Of a stretch of 64,000 nucleotides of DNA, positions 10,471 through 18,230 are shown piece by piece. Made by a program: the position numbers and the translations under genes. This DNA is from Thermoproteota archaeon (GTDB taxonomy: Archaea > Thermoproteota > Thermoprotei > Gearchaeales > Gearchaeaceae). The stretch is from the NCBI GenBank assembly GCA_032249235.1, contig JAVVGF010000001.1, forward strand, positions 320,001-384,000. The letters are read 5' to 3'. Within the stretch, counting starts at the first letter, position 1, and each line of letters starts with the position of its first letter. A model generated the notes under the pieces. The model did not search any database. It was given only the letters and a program-made list of their open reading frames with translations, and was not told the DNA's origin.

Positions 10471-10929
10471 ATGGTTTGGATAATAGCGATCAAGCCAAAA
10501 GATAAATCAAATGACTGGAGGGCTATAAAGCTTGAGAATGAAGCTTTTGAACTACTAAATAAAAAAATGAATGCAAGATCTCTATTTTGTTATATTCTTG
10601 AAGGAAGAATTTCAAAAGAAGAAGCGAAGCGAATTGCAGAAGAATTCATCGTAGATCCTATTGTTGAAGATTATTATTTATTCGAATCTGAAGAAGAAAT
10701 TTATAAAGAGTTTGAAGGTCTTAAAATTTCAATTCATTATAAAAAAGGTTTCATAAATCCTGATGACGAAATAATTCAAAGAAGTTTGAGAATGATTTTA
10801 GGAGATAAAATCTCTAATCTTAAAACTTTTTTGACTTATCTTATAGAAGGAATAAACGAAGAAGAAGCAAAGCTTGTTGCCGAAAAAATATTAGCGAATA
10901 AGCTAATTCATGATGTAATAATAAAATGA
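10471..10929 (+). CDS. purS: Phosphoribosylformylglycinamidine synthase PurS, tandem two-domain form
   Basis: Two PurS-like repeats (YILEGRISKEEAKRIAEEFIVDPI and YLIEGINEEEAKLVAEKILANKL); overlaps purL start. Confidence 0.75.
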   Translation: MVWIIAIKPKDKSNDWRAIKLENEAFELLNKKMNARSLFCYILEGRISKEEAKRIAEEFIVDPIVEDYYLFESEEEIYKEFEGLKISIHYKKGFINPDDEIIQRSLRMILGDKISNLKTFLTYLIEGINEEEAKLVAEKILANKLIHDVIIK

Positions 10930-13286
10930 TCGAATTTCAAAGATTCAATATTTCAAGCTATAATGATGATGAATTACTCAGACTAAATCAACTTCTCGAT
11001 TTAAATTTAAGTATAGAGGAACTTAAAGCAATAAGAAAATATTACGAAAAAGAAAATAGAGAAGCTACTGATCTAGAATTACATACTTTTTCTCAAGTAT
11101 GGTCTGAACATTGTTTTCATAAGACTTTCAAGTCGAAAATTATCCTGAATAATGAAATAATCGAAGGATTATTCAAAGAATACATTTTTAAAGCGTCTGA
11201 ATTGTTGAATAAAAATTGGTGTATTAATTTATTTTCCGACAACGCAGGAATTATCGAATTCGATGAACAATATGCGATTGCAGTAAAAGTTGAGACGCAT
11301 AATCATCCTACTGCTTTAGACCCATTTTGCGGTGCTCATACAGGAATGGGAGGAGTTTATAGGGATATACTTGGTGTCAGTGCTAGACCTATTGGAGCAA
11401 TGGATTATTTATTTTTCGCACCTATCGATTTACCATATAACTCAATTCCTTCAGGTATCTATCATCCCAAAATAGTTTTAAAAAGAGTAGTTGAAGCCAT
11501 CGCAGATTATGGAAATAAAGTTGGAATTCCTACAGTAAATGGTTCAATTCACTTTGATATCGGTTATTTGAGAAATCCTTTAGTATATGCAGGTTGCATC
11601 GGTATCCTACCTAAAAATAAATACGTAAAAAATCCTAAAGTTGGAGATTTAATAGTAATAATAGGAGGGAAAACTGGAAGAGATGGAATTCATGGTGCAT
11701 CATTTGCTTCAGCTTCATTAACTCTAGAAAGTGGAGAAATCTACTATTCTGCTGTTCAAATAGGAAATCCGATTGAAGAAAAGAAAATTATTGAAGCGAT
11801 TATGAGAGCTAGGGATGAATATGAGAAACCTCTTTATTCTTTAATTACCGATCTAGGGGGCGGAGGGTTAGCAGTAGCTTTATGCGAATCATTCAAAAAT
11901 CTTGGATTTAAAGTAGATCTAAGCAACGTGCAACTTAAGCATTTGAATATGCAACCATGGGAAATTTGGGTTTCAGAATCTCAAGAAAGGATGCTTTTAG
12001 CAATACCGAAAGAGAACTTAGAAAAATTTTTAGAAATATGTGATGAAGAAGGAGTAAACGTTAACGTTATAGGCGAAGTAACGAATGATAAGAAAGCTTT
12101 AATATTTTATCAAGAAATGTTGGTGGGAGAAATAGATTTGGATTTCCTCTTTAAAGGAATACCACTTAAAGTTTTGAAAGCTGAATTGCCTAAATATGAA
12201 GCTTCTGAAGAAGTAGAGTTGAAAGATAAAGATGATTATACTTCTGATTTAATTGAAATATTGTCCGATCCAAATATTGCTAGTAAAGAATGGATTATAA
12301 GGCAATATGACCATGAAGTTGGTGCGAGGACAATTTTGAAGCCTTTACAAGGTTTCAATTGCGATGGCCCTGGTGATGCTGCTGTATTAAAACCTTTATA
12401 TGATTCATGGAAAGGTGTTGTAATTTCTAACGGCGGAAACCCTAGATACTCTTCCGATGTATATAACATGGCTTTATCAGCTATAGATGAAGCAATAAGA
12501 AATAATGTTGCTGCTGGTGGAAGAAGGATAGCTCTTTTAGATAATTTCAGTTGGGGCGATCCAAATGATCCGAAAGAATTAGGAAAATTAGTTTTAGCTG
12601 CAAAAGCATGTTATGAAGGTGCAATTGCTTTCGATACTCCTTTCATATCGGGAAAAGATAGTTTGTATAATATTTACCAAGAAGAAGGAAAAACCTTTTC
12701 AATCCCTCCTACATTGGTCATTACTGCAGTAGGCATAATTCCAGATGTCAGGAAAGCTGTAACAACAGATTTCAAAAGGAGTGGAAATTACATCTATATT
12801 TTGGGCTTTACTTTTGATGAGCTCGGGGGTTCTGCATTTTATTATAACAAAGGAATAAAAAGTGGAAAAGTTCCAACTGTGTATCCTGAAAGAGCAAAAC
12901 AAATCTATGAAAGAGTAATTAAAGCAATCGATAGAGGTTTGATCAAAGCATGTCATGATTGCTCTGAGGGAGGACTAGCTGTCGCAATAGCTGAGATGTG
13001 CATAGGCGGAAATTGTGGTGCAGAAATACACTTAGAAAAAATTCCTACAAATCTTTCTAAAAGGTATAAAATTCTTTTTTCAGAAAGCAATTCGAGATTT
13101 CTTGTTGAAGTTGCACAAGGCTATGAAAAAGAATTCGACCATGTAATGAGAGGTATAACTTATGCTAAAATAGGTTATGTTACAAGCGAAAAAACGCTAA
13201 AAATAAAACATGAAAAGTCAACAATTGTAGAGGCATCATTAAATGACATGGTTAGAGCGTGGAAAAATCCATTAAGTTTACCATGA
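10926..13286 (+). CDS. purL: FGAM synthase subunit PurL
   Basis: WSEHCFHK, KVETHNHP, DLGGGG, SESQERM, QYDHEV, ISGKDS motifs. Confidence 0.97.
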   Translation: MIEFQRFNISSYNDDELLRLNQLLDLNLSIEELKAIRKYYEKENREATDLELHTFSQVWSEHCFHKTFKSKIILNNEIIEGLFKEYIFKASELLNKNWCINLFSDNAGIIEFDEQYAIAVKVETHNHPTALDPFCGAHTGMGGVYRDILGVSARPIGAMDYLFFAPIDLPYNSIPSGIYHPKIVLKRVVEAIADYGNKVGIPTVNGSIHFDIGYLRNPLVYAGCIGILPKNKYVKNPKVGDLIVIIGGKTGRDGIHGASFASASLTLESGEIYYSAVQIGNPIEEKKIIEAIMRARDEYEKPLYSLITDLGGGGLAVALCESFKNLGFKVDLSNVQLKHLNMQPWEIWVSESQERMLLAIPKENLEKFLEICDEEGVNVNVIGEVTNDKKALIFYQEMLVGEIDLDFLFKGIPLKVLKAELPKYEASEEVELKDKDDYTSDLIEILSDPNIASKEWIIRQYDHEVGARTILKPLQGFNCDGPGDAAVLKPLYDSWKGVVISNGGNPRYSSDVYNMALSAIDEAIRNNVAAGGRRIALLDNFSWGDPNDPKELGKLVLAAKACYEGAIAFDTPFISGKDSLYNIYQEEGKTFSIPPTLVITAVGIIPDVRKAVTTDFKRSGNYIYILGFTFDELGGSAFYYNKGIKSGKVPTVYPERAKQIYERVIKAIDRGLIKACHDCSEGGLAVAIAEMCIGGNCGAEIHLEKIPTNLSKRYKILFSESNSRFLVEVAQGYEKEFDHVMRGITYAKIGYVTSEKTLKIKHEKSTIVEASLNDMVRAWKNPLSLP

Positions 13287-14056
13287 AGGTAAAATCATTA
13301 GTAATAAGGTCTGAGGGTACGAATTGTGATTTAGAAACTGTAGAAGCTCTTAGACTTGCAGGTTCTCAAGTAGATCTCCTTCACATCAATAGAATAATTA
13401 AAAAACCAGGTTTGTTGGAAGAATATCAATTGCTAGTTTTTCCAGGAGGTTTTTCTTTTGGTGATTGTATAAGCGCAGGCAAAATATTATCTAACATTTT
13501 AAAAACTGCTTTAAAGAAAGAATTGAAGAAATTTATAGATGAAGGTAAGCCTGTGCTTGGAATTTGCAATGGTTTTCAAACTTTACTTAAGCTAGGGGCA
13601 TTACCTTTTTCTGATGAATTTGAGCAATGTGCTTCTTTAGTGACGAATTCAAACGGGCTTTTTATCGATAAATGGGTTTATTTAAAATTCAACAGATCTA
13701 AGTGCATTTTTACAAAAGATTCTCCAAATGTAATTTACCTGCCAATTAATCATAAAGAAGGGAGATTTGTGATCGAGGAAAAATTTTTGAAGAAACTGGT
13801 AGATAACGAGCAAATCATTTATCAATATTCTTCGCAAAGCGGCGAGGTTAAAGAGGAATATAACCCTAATGGATCAACATTTAATATAGCCGCTATTTGT
13901 AATGAACATTATAATGTTCTAGGTATAATGCCGCATCCTGAAAAATACGTTCATAAATATCAACATCCTTCTTGGACTAGATATCCTAACTTGAAAGAAG
14001 AAGGAGAAGGGTTGTTAATTTTTAAAAACGCCTTGAATTACGCAAAAAAATTTTAG
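13283..14056 (+). CDS. purQ: FGAM synthase glutaminase subunit PurQ
   Basis: GTNCD, PGGFSFGD, GICNGFQ, MPHPE; ATG 13283 overlaps purL stop (ATGA). Confidence 0.96.
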   Translation: MKVKSLVIRSEGTNCDLETVEALRLAGSQVDLLHINRIIKKPGLLEEYQLLVFPGGFSFGDCISAGKILSNILKTALKKELKKFIDEGKPVLGICNGFQTLLKLGALPFSDEFEQCASLVTNSNGLFIDKWVYLKFNRSKCIFTKDSPNVIYLPINHKEGRFVIEEKFLKKLVDNEQIIYQYSSQSGEVKEEYNPNGSTFNIAAICNEHYNVLGIMPHPEKYVHKYQHPSWTRYPNLKEEGEGLLIFKNALNYAKKF

Positions 14057-14133: not shown

Positions 14134-15369
14134 ATGTCGTCATTTAGGTTGGATGATTTAATTAGTAGATTATCTGAAAGAGCTTCGAGAATTTTTAAAA
14201 ATAGAGAAACCTTGAGACCTGATTATATTCCTGATGAACTCCCACATAGAGATAAAGAGATATACAAATTAGCTGAAATTTTATTCCATCCTTTGTTAAA
14301 AGGAGATAGACCTTCTAATGTATTCATCTACGGTTATCCAGGAACAGGCAAAACTGCTACAACAAAACATGTTTTCAAAGCTATAAAAGAAAAATTAGCT
14401 CCTAGACTTCAAGTTCCAGTTTATTGTCTTATTATAAATTGCAAAATCGACGATACTAATTATAGGATACTAAAGGAAATAAACGACTTCTTCAGTATAC
14501 CTACGCCTCATACAGGCTTATCACTAGCTGAGTTATATACCAGAATAGTTAAAGAGCTAAAGAGAAGGACAGGATTTTTCATACTTGCTTTAGATGAAAT
14601 AGATAATTTCGTGAAAAAAAGCGGTGATGAAATACTTTATAAATTAACTAGAATAAATTCTGAAGGAATCACAACAAAAGTATCCTTAGTGGGTATTACG
14701 AATGATCTTCATTTTAAAGAATATTTGGATCCAAGGGTTAAAAGTAGTCTAAGTGAAGAAGAACTAGTTTTCACACCATATACTGCAGATCAATTAAGAG
14801 ATATTTTGTATGCAAGGGCAAAAATCGCATTATATGAGGATAGCTATACAGATGGTGCCATAAATTTATGTGCTTCAATAGCAGCAAAAGAGCATGGAGA
14901 TGTTAGAAGAGCTCTAGATCTTTTAAGAGTGGCAGGAGAGTTGGCTGAGAGAAGGAATGATCCTAAAATAACTGAAGATCATGTAAAAGAAGCACTTAGA
15001 ATTATGGAGCGTGATAAGATTTGGGAAGTGGTGATTTCTTTACCTTTCCATTCAAAGCTTGTTTTATTGGTTATAGCTTATCTACAAGAAAGATTTCTAA
15101 GAGAATGTACCACGGGTGAAGTTTATGAAGAATATGTTAAAATATGCAGAGAAATTGGCCAAGAACCTCTAACTGCAAGAAGAGTTAGTGATATTATAAA
15201 TGAACTCGACATGGGTGGTCTAATAAAAGCAAACTTAACAAGTAAGGGTAGATATGGGAGAACTAAGTATATATCTTTGAGAATAGATAAGGATGAAACT
15301 TTCAGAGCTCTTAAAGAAGATGAAAGGCTTGAATTCATCATACAATCTATTAGTAGCTGGAATAGATGA
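14134..15369 (+). CDS. cdc6: Orc1/Cdc6 replication initiator
   Basis: PDYIPDELPHR, Walker A GYPGTGKT, Walker B LDEID, GDVRRALDLL, winged helix with GRYGRT. Confidence 0.96.
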   Translation: MSSFRLDDLISRLSERASRIFKNRETLRPDYIPDELPHRDKEIYKLAEILFHPLLKGDRPSNVFIYGYPGTGKTATTKHVFKAIKEKLAPRLQVPVYCLIINCKIDDTNYRILKEINDFFSIPTPHTGLSLAELYTRIVKELKRRTGFFILALDEIDNFVKKSGDEILYKLTRINSEGITTKVSLVGITNDLHFKEYLDPRVKSSLSEEELVFTPYTADQLRDILYARAKIALYEDSYTDGAINLCASIAAKEHGDVRRALDLLRVAGELAERRNDPKITEDHVKEALRIMERDKIWEVVISLPFHSKLVLLVIAYLQERFLRECTTGEVYEEYVKICREIGQEPLTARRVSDIINELDMGGLIKANLTSKGRYGRTKYISLRIDKDETFRALKEDERLEFIIQSISSWNR

Positions 15370-15907
15370 TGGAGGCTTCAAACCAGATTTTAAATATATA
15401 AAAGAAAAACCTTCTGTTCCCTTAATAGTTGTTTATTATAGAAATCATAGAATTATAGATTTGAAATTTTCTGCAATAAAAATAGATGGTTTGGATGCGA
15501 CCGAAAAATTAATTGAAATCCTTAAGCTTAAAAAACCTTCTGTCATCTTTTCAGCTGGCATCACAGTAGCTGGCTTTAATATTATAGATTTCATAAAGAT
15601 TTATGATACATTAAAAATTCCAACTATTGTTGTCTTAGATCATAAACCAAATCTAAAAAGAATTAAGGATGCAATTGCTAAACATTTGGATAATGCGGAA
15701 AAAAGGATTAGTATTATTATGAAGTATCCAAAATTTAAAAAATTCAAGAACCTTTATTATGAAAGTATTGGTATCGATGAAAAATTGGCATTGGAGCTAA
15801 TTAATTCTTTTAGAATTTTCAGTAAATATCCGGAGCCGCTTAGATTGGCTCATATGATAGCTAAATCATTGTATAAATACTCTTTAGAAAAGGAATCTCA
15901 TAACTGA
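15320..15907 (+). CDS. DUF99 family protein (endonuclease V-like fold)
   Basis: AGIDDG, DGLDAT, GITVAGFNIID, PEPLRLAHMIA; start ATG 15320 or 15293, both inside cdc6. Confidence 0.85.
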   Translation: MKGLNSSYNLLVAGIDDGGFKPDFKYIKEKPSVPLIVVYYRNHRIIDLKFSAIKIDGLDATEKLIEILKLKKPSVIFSAGITVAGFNIIDFIKIYDTLKIPTIVVLDHKPNLKRIKDAIAKHLDNAEKRISIIMKYPKFKKFKNLYYESIGIDEKLALELINSFRIFSKYPEPLRLAHMIAKSLYKYSLEKESHN

Positions 15908-17290
15908 TAGATCCTTTAAATTTATCACATAGCATGAATGCCTAGGTTTTTCATCGTTTAGATAATTTATCCATGATGAATTAGAGATTAATAAACAACC
16001 ATGATAACTCGAATTACTATAAATGTCAAAATGACCACACAACATTAAATCAGGCCTTTCATCTATTATAAAAGGATCGTAACCTAAAGGAAGAAGTCCT
16101 TCAATTCTTACGTTGCTTATAAGACTCCTTCTTTTCATTACATCTTGCATAGTTTTAATCATAGCTTCTTCTAATTTTTCTAAATCAACCACATTTTCGT
16201 TGAATAGAGATTCAAAATAAAATCCATGCGTCATTAGTATTTTTCTTTCAGATATCTCAATATAAGAAGGATCTTTGAGCAGTATTAGATTCTTAAATTT
16301 AAATAAGGGTTCAGTAATTTCTTGATCGAATTCATTAAAAGGAATAGTCTGAATTAATTGGTCTCTTTCACCTGGAATAGCATAAATCGTTATATCTTGT
16401 CTTATATTACTCAATAATCCAGCAAGTTCCTCATATTGACTGTACATGTCATCAGTTATATTAAATTTGAATTTACTTTCAAAAGAAAATCCTTCAATTA
16501 AATCTCCTGTTATTAATAAATATTTTATTTTTGAAGAAATTTCTTTATATTCATCAAATTTATTATTTAAAAAGTCTATAAAATTTTTAAAAGCATCATA
16601 ATCAAATGTTTCATTGCCACATCTTATGTCAGATATACATGCAATATATATATCTTTTTCTATCTTTTTTTCTGTCGCATATTCTAAATCAGGTAGATAA
16701 ATTTTATTTACTCTTATATAATATCCTTTATCAGTTTTTATAAGTATACCATCTAATATTGCTACGTCATCTAATTTCATTTCTAAAGCTAACCGGTATG
16801 CTTCTTCTTTATACTTCGGTACTATAGCTCTAAAGCTTCCATAAGGATCTTCAAATTCTAGTAGCAACGCATCATACTTGGCGCTTTCCTTACTATACAA
16901 CATCCCAGCTATTGATATCTGTGATTTATCCAACATCTTATCGAGATCAGTAGAAGTTGTATTTGCTGTTTTGCGATGAACTTTTTCAATTATCTTTTTT
17001 AGTTTGTTAAATCTATCTTCAAGCATTAATTTATACCCCATTGTGATATCGCTTACTTCTTTTATTTCTCTTCTGTAAGTCTGTGAATTTTGTTCTTTTA
17101 AAGATAAGTCTTTTGAATATCTTTTTATTAACTCATTAACAGTTTCTTTAGTAATTAATTCATCTATATTTTTTATTTCATTTAATATTAAATCTATAAT
17201 TTCACTATCTTCTAAACTTTCTAAAATTTTTAATGCATCCTCTGTAATATAGATTTTCTCTTTATTTAAAAATTCTTTAATTTTACTCAT
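15884..17290 (-). CDS. DNA polymerase D small subunit (DP1)/B-subunit homolog with degenerate exonuclease motifs
   Basis: N-terminal helical domain, OB fold (IAGML...EFEDPYG), PDE domain with altered motifs SDIRCG, GDLIEG, PGERD, THG, GHFD; DP1-like DPFIIDERPD. Confidence 0.8.
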   Translation of the reverse strand: MSKIKEFLNKEKIYITEDALKILESLEDSEIIDLILNEIKNIDELITKETVNELIKRYSKDLSLKEQNSQTYRREIKEVSDITMGYKLMLEDRFNKLKKIIEKVHRKTANTTSTDLDKMLDKSQISIAGMLYSKESAKYDALLLEFEDPYGSFRAIVPKYKEEAYRLALEMKLDDVAILDGILIKTDKGYYIRVNKIYLPDLEYATEKKIEKDIYIACISDIRCGNETFDYDAFKNFIDFLNNKFDEYKEISSKIKYLLITGDLIEGFSFESKFKFNITDDMYSQYEELAGLLSNIRQDITIYAIPGERDQLIQTIPFNEFDQEITEPLFKFKNLILLKDPSYIEISERKILMTHGFYFESLFNENVVDLEKLEEAMIKTMQDVMKRRSLISNVRIEGLLPLGYDPFIIDERPDLMLCGHFDIYSNSSYHGCLLISNSSWINYLNDEKPRHSCYVINLKDLSVMRFLF

Positions 17291-18230
17291 TTAAAGCAAG
17301 TGCTTTTAAAACTGTTATCCAAGCATTAGCTACGTTTTCAAAATTATAACCGCCTCCACCTAGAGCAAGTAGTCTACCTTTGCTTTTCTCATGTGAAAGT
17401 TTATGCAACAATTTCGTTACTTCTTTGTGCACGTTAGGAGTATAATTCAAATGTGTTAATGGATCTCCTCTCAAACCATCAGCGCCACATTGTAAAATGA
17501 TCAGTTCATAATTTTCATTGAGAATCATTTCTTCTGCTCTTTTAAGAGCTCTAAGAAATTCTTCATCTCCGCTATATGGCTTAAGAGGTATGTTTAACTT
17601 TTTGCCAAATCCTTCTCCTTTACCTCTTTCGTTTTCAAAACCTGTTCCTGGAAACAAAAATCTTCCATCTTCATGTATATCAACAAAGTATAGCTCGCCA
17701 TCTTCTTCATAAGAATAATAGACACCATCTCCATGATGAGCATCTATGTCAAAATAAAGAATTTTTTTAATACCATACTTTTTTCTTGCATACTCTATGC
17801 CAATACATATATCGTTGAAAACACAGAATCCTGAAGCTCTTTCTTTATATGCATGATGCAACCCTCCTGTTGGATTGAAAGCATGCTGAACTTTTCCTTG
17901 AAATATCGAATCTAAAGCTTCAAGGGTTGATCCTGCTGAATATGCAGATGCTTCATAAACGCCCGGATAAGCAGGCGTATCACCATAATCAAGATAGCCG
18001 CTACCAATTTTTGACAATCTTTTAACCAATTCTAAATACTCTTTTTCATGAAATAGTAAGATTTCTTCATCTGTCGCTCTTCTCGCACTCAGCTTTATTA
18101 CGATATTATTATCTAGCAATTCTTGTAATTTTTCTAAGAATATCTTATACCTATCTTCGTTCAAAGGATGAGGTTTAGGAAAATGATATCTTAAATTTTC
18201 TCCTAATACTACTCCTACTTTGCAATTCAT
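17283..18230 (-). CDS. Histone deacetylase/AcuC family Zn-dependent deacylase
   Basis: GGLHHA, SGFCVFND, DIDAHHGDG, GADGLRGDPL, GGGGY. Confidence 0.93.
   Translation of the reverse strand: MNCKVGVVLGENLRYHFPKPHPLNEDRYKIFLEKLQELLDNNIVIKLSARRATDEEILLFHEKEYLELVKRLSKIGSGYLDYGDTPAYPGVYEASAYSAGSTLEALDSIFQGKVQHAFNPTGGLHHAYKERASGFCVFNDICIGIEYARKKYGIKKILYFDIDAHHGDGVYYSYEEDGELYFVDIHEDGRFLFPGTGFENERGKGEGFGKKLNIPLKPYSGDEEFLRALKRAEEMILNENYELIILQCGADGLRGDPLTHLNYTPNVHKEVTKLLHKLSHEKSKGRLLALGGGGYNFENVANAWITVLKALALNE

Follow-up and report, generated by a model that had tools for sequence, protein, structure and literature searches.

Does a DP1 protein that has lost the residues of its nuclease site still belong to a PolD, and, if it does, what remains of the partner subunit? 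This question is raised by a gene of 468 codons in a stretch of 64,000 nucleotides (hereafter the window) from a Thermoproteota archaeon of the family Gearchaeaceae (assembly GCA_032249235.1, contig JAVVGF010000001.1, positions 320,001 to 384,000 of the forward strand). A preliminary description, made from the window sequence alone, took the gene product for a catalytically dead homologue of DP1 in a lineage that lacks DP2, and likened it to the B-subunits of eukaryotic polymerases. The present analysis points to a different partner. The genome encodes a 729-residue remnant of DP2 and, as judged from sequences and predicted structures, the DP1-like protein and this remnant are probably, although with real room for doubt, the two halves of a catalytically dead PolD heterodimer that is kept as a connector of the replisome while PolB1 synthesises the DNA.

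The coordinates of all features are collected in Table 1. Judged by profile searches and by its predicted fold, the DP1-like protein is a DP1 that stands outside the eukaryotic B-subunit branch. Of the five PRK04036 models for DP1 in NCBIfam, the highest-scoring, NF003118, matches it over its whole length (residues 4–440, E 6.7e-65), with a score of 219.9 bits that lies below the equivalog cut-off of 445. In Pfam the protein is matched by DNA_pol_E_B (PF04042, 4.3e-9, 36.6 bits, above the cut-off of 29.1) and by Metallophos (2.4e-6), and a profile of the DP1-like family retrieves DP1 from the PDB at E 3.3e-79 (5ihe_A) and Pol31 at E 1.6e-4. The AlphaFold2 (AF2) model (pLDDT 77.5, pTM 0.66) comprises a helical N-terminal domain, a linker that is disordered at residues 61–81, an OB barrel and a phosphodiesterase (PDE) sandwich. 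The leading Foldseek matches are the DP1 chains of P. abyssi and T. kodakarensis (E 3.2e-33 to 1.5e-23, TM 0.64–0.72), the best being P. abyssi DP1 (E 3.2e-33, TM 0.66/0.69), with the eukaryotic B-subunits far behind (POLD2, E 1.6e-19, TM about 0.5). An 80-residue N-terminal piece compared with the PDB by sequence gave nothing below E 0.28. The three-domain architecture and the membership of the DP1 family that had been described are therefore supported by NF003118, Pfam, the PDB profile search and AF2/Foldseek alike, and a scan of open reading frames (ORFs) bears out that the 468-codon frame is uninterrupted. The supposed closeness to eukaryotic B-subunits does not stand, both sequence and fold being far nearer to DP1.

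The nuclease motifs were compared in an alignment with 12 relatives, and the motif coordinates were checked by translation. Canonical relatives from the same class read SDLHVGS, GDLIDG, PGNHDA, SHG and MGHVHI, where the window protein reads SDIRCGN, GDLIEG, PGERDQ, THG and CGHFDI. The substitutions DIR, GDLIE, GERD and GHFD, with HG intact, are exactly as first described. DP1 motifs were then surveyed in 93 rows (80 loci from genome records and 13 from a second genome set), of which 70 are fully canonical and 13 depart at one or two positions while keeping the histidines of motifs I and III and the last histidine of motif V. These three histidines are present in 83/83 rows outside the window family. 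All three are missing from 10/10 rows within it, which represent at most eight distinct genomes (four rows may duplicate four others), and from no other row among the 93. This confirms that the substitution pattern is specific to the window lineage.

In the Mre11/calcineurin-type fold the histidine of motif I, the asparagine of motif III and the last histidine of motif V are metal ligands. In the DP1-like protein these positions are occupied by Arg223, Glu308 and Asp422 respectively, and Asp221, Asp263, His355 and His420 remain. The histidine of motif III aligns with chain residue 307 of 5ihe_A, which, with an offset of 144, should correspond to H451 of P. abyssi DP1; its counterpart in the window protein is Arg309. 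H451 is reported to be the critical proton donor, and H451A is an exonuclease-deficient PolD variant (PMC6355029). From the residues that are left, the canonical exonuclease site appears to be disabled by motif loss, as had been proposed, and the canonical two-metal, histidine-assisted mechanism cannot be expected to operate. Separately, six otherwise canonical DP1s (L041, L053, L076, L091, L109 and L060) carry Asp for the first histidine of motif V, a group that includes a Candidatus ainarchaeum record and several records known only as 'archaeon', and two DP1s (L078 and L085, a Jordarchaeia and a Thermoproteota record) carry Gly for the asparagine of motif III.

The altered protein is nevertheless well preserved. 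Comparison with a 92%-identical gene on a metagenome contig gave a ratio of nonsynonymous to synonymous substitution rates (dN/dS, NG86) of 0.075 at dS 0.51, three neighbouring genes giving 0.021–0.066 in the same comparison. The other holders of DNA from the window region are hot-spring metagenomes, and on other hot-spring contigs all three differences inside the DP1-like gene are synonymous. An intact ORF of 468–487 residues (39–63% identity) is present in 9/9 genomes of the family, the window genome included. Because of this low dN/dS and the intact ORFs in all nine genomes, the gene is taken to be under purifying selection. Its bases (26% G+C), moreover, left the frame open in 0/20000 mononucleotide shuffles. 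Conservation is highest in the PDE domain, with a mean pairwise identity of 0.53 among eight family sequences versus 0.34–0.43 elsewhere. The 76 positions that are invariant in the family include Asp221, Asp263, Glu308, Asp310, His355 and His420, and the replacement residues Arg223, Glu308 and Arg309 are likewise invariant. In a DP1 tree of 52 rows the window family is monophyletic (SH-aLRT 100). Its stem is long, at 1.4 substitutions per site, and the branches within the clade are of ordinary length, a shape consistent with a single burst of change after which constraint returned.

The partner was less easily found. As the preliminary description stated, there is no DP2 gene in the window, and four DP2 models (PF03833, TIGR00354, PF24844 and PF24846) detected none in the 64 kb or in the whole genome. 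A search for a separately encoded catalytic piece of DP2, with the four models over six genome frames, had a 67-residue zinc ribbon (E 0.08) as its sole hit. In three genomes of a sister genus, however, TIGR00354 gave a weak match to the final 80 positions of an ORF of 758–760 residues, and this ORF, used as query on the window genome, retrieved the 729-residue protein on contig C4. The protein itself matches none of the four curated models at E ≤ 0.1. A profile of six such proteins located the gene in 8/9 family genomes, the ninth being 67% complete; the closest relative is 85% identical over the entire length (protein only). The premise that the lineage lacks DP2 thus falls, and calls of 'DP2 absent' from Pfam or TIGRFAM models can be false negatives.

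When the remnant family was compared with four canonical DP2s by hhalign, the probability was 99.4% (E 2.3e-21, remnant columns 357–750), and an hmmsearch of the PDB with the remnant found DP2 chain 6knb_B at E 9.3e-21. These alignments firmly establish the C-terminal 55% of the protein as homologous to DP2. The N-terminal half gave no significant hhalign match to canonical DP2 (probability 1.5%, E 0.035), and its kinship is suggested by its fold, which matches DP2(1–300). The AF2 model, confident at residues 40–250 and 440–570, returned DP2 chains as all of the top eight Foldseek matches (E 1.3e-10 to 2.8e-5). In VIA-align it gave Z 15.8 both with whole P. abyssi DP2 (6t8h_B) and with residues 1–300 of P. 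horikoshii DP2 (3o59; root-mean-square deviation 3.5 Å over 207 aligned residues). Residues 451–577 superpose on the double-psi barrels of RNA polymerases and of designed DPBB proteins (Z 8–9.8).

The remnant keeps an N-terminal domain, the zinc modules Zn-I, Zn-II and Zn-III, one double-psi barrel and the C-terminal helices. Six CxxC motifs are present in the remnants of all eight family genomes, and 12/12 zinc-ligand cysteines are invariant among six remnant sequences that are only 25–41% identical. The barrel that is kept (residues 451–577) is the second one, DPBB-2, with its D..LN.S signature. At the C-terminus the motif E[KR]LDK[FY][FL] occurs in 14/14 remnant rows (eight genomes and six cluster representatives, partly overlapping) and matches the cPIP of Thermococcus DP2 (KGISLDEFFGS, LDEFF). 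The C-terminal Zn-III region, which docks DP1 in solved PolD, is also retained; in PolD the RR pair of the Zn-III loop sits in the groove between the OB and PDE domains of DP1 (PMC6355029). About 400 residues have been lost, including the stretch aligned with the first barrel, DPBB-1 (YYAGPIRSAGGTEQ ... GFRIRYGR), which is absent from the alignment, and the model is of low confidence at residues 255–432. The clamp insertion and the DGD motif are gone as well: CDGDED is found in 4/4 canonical DP2 rows, and the acidic pair is absent from 14/14 remnant rows. In the PolD active site no aspartates other than those of DGD are reported to be strictly conserved (PMC6355029). Remnants from two species of the genus share 41% identity, the lowest value of the 16 genes compared, whereas 14 neighbouring genes are 46–88% identical; it appears to evolve fast but to stay intact. 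One genome of the same genus (G003; 74% complete, 4% contamination) carries the remnant twice, at C201:287-2470 and C67:758-2941 with near-equal scores, which may reflect an assembly duplicate or two strains.

Studies of active PolD suggest what such a pair could still do. The four-helix DP1N domain of Thermococcus binds the C-terminal domain of Gins51, and in the same report GINS is bound by PolD and not by PolB, and PolD stimulates the ATPase and helicase of CMG (PMC9023282). PolD is further reported to link primase to GINS through the cPIP of DP2, with PCNA displacing primase, and an L/F/F-to-alanine cPIP mutant of Thermococcus DP2 to lose primase binding (PMC8096248). A connector role in the replisome is proposed here because the surviving parts are those that these contacts need, and those that carry out the synthesis or trimming of DNA have been lost. 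The DP1-like protein presumably binds the remnant, the pair presumably has lost both activities, and its role is presumably that of a scaffold. In such a scheme the two proteins would form a heterodimer without polymerisation or proofreading; the DP1 N-domain would tether it to GINS/CMG, the DP2 C-terminal peptide would tether it to primase and PCNA, and an intact PolB1 would carry out synthesis. The genome has a single family-B polymerase, of the PolB1 type (S. solfataricus PolB1, 1s5j_A, E 3.6e-215), which retains intact exonuclease motifs and YGDTDS. The genome also encodes PriL and a GINS subunit. The idea of a structural-only subunit in the preliminary description survives in this form, as half of a dead PolD; the orphan B-subunit does not, since the remnant was found, although GINS is a possible additional contact of the DP1-like protein.

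Several points weigh against a dead pair that serves as a connector. In most members the Zn-III loop of the remnant has one of the two interface arginines (RP versus RRxP), and one genus lacks that arginine as well. The AF2 model of the remnant has a mean pLDDT of 56.8, with the zinc modules and C-terminal region below 50–60. The genome (1.43 Mb, 18 contigs) is 91% complete and, for this genome taken alone, a canonical DP2 could lie on the missing sequence. Sulfolobus GINS is reported to contact primase directly, so that a PolD bridge is not necessary for PolB1-based replisomes. In the DP1-like protein, the residues suggest that one metal site could survive (Asp263, Glu308, His355 and His420) and, the remodelled pocket being the most conserved part of the protein, a changed activity is possible. 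Finally, contigs from one RNA run lie on the orc1 and deacetylase genes and none on the DP1-like gene, a run that covered a small share of the window and is no evidence either way on expression of the gene.

The last but one of these points leads to the first alternative, in which the PDE pocket would not be dead but remodelled, into a one-metal nuclease or phosphatase or into a binder of 3′ ends or nucleotides. The invariance of the acidic and histidine residues, of Arg223, Glu308 and Arg309 and of the THGxYFE stretch would suit such a pocket, as would the PDE domain being the most conserved. Set against this, three histidines of the dinuclear site, the proton donor among them, are gone, and a dead partner polymerase would leave no nascent strand to proofread. 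In pseudoenzymes, moreover, an arginine that replaces a metal-ligand histidine usually fills the metal site. A remodelled activity is judged to be unlikely, while deserving to be kept in mind.

Alternatively, the dead pair may have been recruited away from the replication fork, to repair, recombination or regulation, its zinc modules and OB fold forming a platform for DNA binding. The setting of the genes gives this some appeal: the remnant lies away from orc1, in an operon-like row after PcrB-family and membrane-protein genes, a deacetylase-family gene and the DP1-like gene are coupled, and the remnant evolves fast relative to its neighbours. The features that have been retained, however, are the replisome connectors (the DP1 N-domain, Zn-III with the C-terminal region, and cPIP), and the DP1-like gene lies beside orc1 in three genomes or contigs. 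An off-fork role is thus also considered unlikely, if hardly more so than a remodelled pocket.

A eukaryote-style arrangement, in which a dead DP1 without any DP2 is bound to a family-B polymerase or only to GINS, is closest to the original proposal. Standard DP2 models match nothing in the genome, the PDE site appears dead, PolB1 and a GINS subunit exist, and Aenigmatarchaeota and Baldrarchaeia offer reported archaeal precedents for the pairing of a PolB with a dead DP1 (PMC7544198; PMC12680538). Nevertheless, the remnant with its DP1-docking Zn-III region co-occurs with the DP1-like gene in 8/9 family genomes, and the sole PolB, whose C-terminal tail is without cysteines, lacks the Cys-rich C-terminal domain. 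In the yeast two-hybrid data described in PMC12680538, DP1 binds PolBs only if a DP2-derived tail is present, and tail-less PolBs are not bound. A PolB partner for the DP1-like protein is therefore disfavoured, and the arrangement as a whole is improbable.

The notion that the DP1-like gene is a neutrally drifting pseudogene, for which its score below the equivalog cut-off and its long stem branch might be cited, is rejected and neutral decay ruled out by the selection and conservation data given above (dN/dS, intact ORFs, invariant positions and shuffles).

How a dead PolD pair might have arisen is suggested by its distribution. Among 120 genomes of the class that were searched for DP1 and for DP2 or its remnant, DP1 was found in 16: 9/9 in the window family, 2/3 in the sister family and 5/5 in two further families. 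DP2 or a remnant accompanies it in 15 of the 16, the exception being a genome that is 67% complete, and neither DP1 nor DP2 was found in the other 104/120, many of them closed. The two further families have a full PolD, with about 1400 bits on TIGR00354. The sister family, from the same order as the window family, has a DP2 of 1031 residues with all three Pfam DP2 domains at 57, 234 and 210 bits, versus 390, 426 and 480, and in 2/2 genomes this DP2 reads CNGQED, not CDGDED. Its DP1 keeps every histidine, the only change being Asn to Glu in motif III (GEHD). On these sequences the sister family looks like an intermediate state, and an unrooted comparison of the two families suggests that the polymerase site was lost before the nuclease site. 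In the DP1 tree the window and sister families lie on adjacent long branches (SH-aLRT 91), an adjacency that may be due to long-branch attraction. A further protein, P0021, is a 1034-residue DP2 on a short contig of a low-GC organism; it is without the DGD aspartates and keeps the three Pfam DP2 domains, and may represent yet another lineage in which the polymerase site is dead.

A wider proposal can be put forward only tentatively, and is somewhat more doubtful than not. PolD may have an essential task as organiser of the replisome that does not depend on polymerisation, namely to bridge GINS/CMG, primase and PCNA, and this task may persist after both catalytic sites have been lost. If so, the class would record the crenarchaeal loss of PolD step by step, from full PolD, through a DP2 with a dead DGD motif and a nearly intact DP1, to a one-barrel remnant with a dead DP1, and finally to nothing. 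This would be an independent parallel to Pol epsilon/Dpb2, perhaps repeated in TACK archaea.

Inactivated PolD is a kind of system that has already been noted but barely described, and is found here in a new lineage. In the literature that was searched for an inactive archaeal DP1, DP2 or PolD, only the study of Kazlauskas 2020 (NAR 48:10142, PMC7544198) was found, and nothing on the polymerases of this lineage. That study names three groups of archaea in which DP1 is inactive or an active DP2 is lacking. In one of them, within Nitrososphaeria, DP1 is inactivated, an active DP2 is missing and no PolB ends in a zinc domain; this group is known from two or three metagenome-assembled genomes, for which it was 'premature to draw any conclusion' (PMC7544198). 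The window lineage resembles this group in its inactive DP1, the lack of an active DP2 and the lack of a zinc-tailed PolB. It belongs to a different class, the nearest named records being those of a Crenarchaeota/Thermoproteota archaeon.

A profile search over 1.84 billion representatives returned nine window-type remnants at E ≤ 1e-30 and, at about 1e-15, proteins of the type of P0026; P0021 came from this search as well. P0026, P0029 and P0037 are DP2-like, of 685–715 residues, and are named in their sources as hypothetical proteins of Nitrososphaerota/Nitrososphaeria. Proteins of this type are without DGD, keep six CxxC motifs and end in QxSLxEF; they are probably the published Nitrososphaeria group. 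With the window remnant they share the lack of DGD, common deletions in the C-terminal half, the zinc modules and the terminal L..F. They differ in keeping a vestige of DPBB-1, which the window remnant does not, and the N-terminal halves of the two types do not align. A search with P0026 in a sample of 401 genomes from the phylum hit nothing beyond the zinc regions of canonical DP2. A cluster of 58 members in the ESM Atlas (752 residues) looks like the P0026-type set.

The pair also invites comparison with better known polymerases. Like canonical PolD (P. abyssi 6HMS/6T8H, T. kodakarensis 6KNB), it has two subunits and a DP1 with N-domain, OB and PDE domains, and its second subunit has the N-terminal domain, three zinc modules, DPBB-2, C-terminal docking region and cPIP of canonical DP2. 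Unlike canonical PolD, it has apparently lost both active sites, the remnant is about 400 residues shorter with a single detectable barrel, and the DP1-like and remnant genes are unlinked. With POLA2, POLD2 and POLE2 it shares an inactivated phosphodiesterase of the DP1 type and a partner with a DP2-type zinc C-terminal domain, but here the partner is a DP2 remnant, not a PolB, and the substitutions are independent. Of the eukaryote-type arrangement, the inactivated PDE motifs are present and a PolB with a zinc or Fe-S tail is absent. The pair further resembles the C-terminal half of Pol epsilon with Dpb2, in which a catalytically inert, polymerase-derived module is retained; this inert half of Pol epsilon is essential.

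Aenigmatarchaeota and Baldrarchaeia likewise have an archaeal DP1 without an active DP2, the Aenigmatarchaeota DP1 being reported as inactivated (PMC7544198; PMC12680538). In these lineages the DP2 tail is fused to PolB, whereas the window lineage has a tail-less PolB1 and a separate remnant. A 2025 survey names only these two lineages as keeping DP1 without DP2 (PMC12680538); seen through standard models, the window lineage would count as a third. Crenarchaeota, for their part, are described as lacking PolD (PMC4104785, PMC7544198). What is new here is the anatomy of the remnant, the apparent intermediate in the sister family and the setting in a class most of whose members lack PolD. In Thermococcus and haloarchaea the polymerase function of PolD is essential, so that the non-catalytic functions of the enzyme are difficult to dissect genetically. 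If the dead pair is a scaffold, these functions would have been isolated in nature, and PolD would join Pol epsilon, for which the same has been proposed, as a second, independent case of a replicative polymerase that lives on in a structural capacity.

Table 1. Positions of the DP1-like gene, its domains and motifs, the neighbouring genes and the related DP1 and DP2 loci. Positions without a contig or locus name are those of the window.
Feature	Position	Strand	Remarks
DP1-like gene, 468 aa	15884..17290	-	ORF; read as the probable small subunit of a catalytically dead PolD
N-terminal four-helix domain (residues 1-60), predicted counterpart of DP1N	17111..17290	-	AF2 helices 3-10, 17-25, 29-40 and 48-59, pLDDT 82-90
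OB fold (residues about 124-198)	16697..16921	-	Pfam tRNA_anti-codon 126-198, E 7.2e-5, below cut-off; AF2 beta strands, pLDDT 87-96
Phosphodiesterase (calcineurin-like) domain	15890..16648	-	Pfam DNA_pol_E_B and Metallophos, residues 216-424
Motif I, DIR (canonical D-x-H)	16622..16630	-	His replaced by Arg223, invariant in family
Motif II, GDLIE (canonical GDxxD)	16493..16507	-	Asp263 kept; second acidic residue is Glu in 9/10 family rows
Motif III, GERD (canonical GNHD)	16361..16372	-	Asn replaced by Glu308, His by Arg309; invariant in family
Motif IV, HG, kept	16223..16228	-	Inside the family-specific invariant THGxYFE
Motif V, GHFD (canonical GHxH)	16025..16036	-	Asp or Asn in place of the second His throughout the family
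Histone-deacetylase-family gene	17283..18230	-	Directly upstream of the DP1-like gene; Pfam Hist_deacetyl 1.7e-80
Endonuclease dU gene	15293..15907	+	Between orc1 and the DP1-like gene; Pfam Endo_dU 6.1e-45
Orc1/Cdc6 initiator gene	14134..15369	+	Two genes away, convergent with the DP1-like gene; TIGR02928 2e-125; Cdc6_C and lid domains
DP2 remnant, 729 aa	G000:C4:10846-13032	-	Query with sister-genus ORF, E 4.2e-58
Tight gene row ending in the remnant	L027:1492-5016 (G000 contig C4)		PcrB-family (GGGP-synthase-like) gene, 200-aa membrane ORF, remnant
Sister-family DP2	L025:2987-6079	-	
Sister-family DP2	L127:649-3741	+	
Sister-family DP1	L015:1270-2802		On a contig other than those of DP2
Sister-family DP1	L014:1216-2739		On a contig other than those of DP2

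The deacetylase-family gene and the DP1-like gene are probably one transcription unit, since the former overlaps the start of the latter by 8 nt; the same order of the two genes is seen in a genome of the same genus and on a metagenome contig. Among the hot-spring contigs 6/15 differences in the deacetylase gene are nonsynonymous, against 0/15 in three neighbouring genes. On contig C4 the remnant overlaps the 200-residue membrane ORF, which has no Pfam match, by 4 nt, and the order of this row is kept in a sister genus (L023).

A search around orc1 for repeats resembling origin recognition boxes gave just weak, AT-rich two-copy matches. The ORF of the endonuclease dU gene, as called, overlaps the end of orc1 by 77 nt and the 3′ end of the DP1-like ORF by 24 nt. 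Directly upstream of orc1 (window 10926-14056, + strand) are two large ORFs of 786 and 265 residues which, by eye, look like the FGAM synthase subunits PurL and PurQ.

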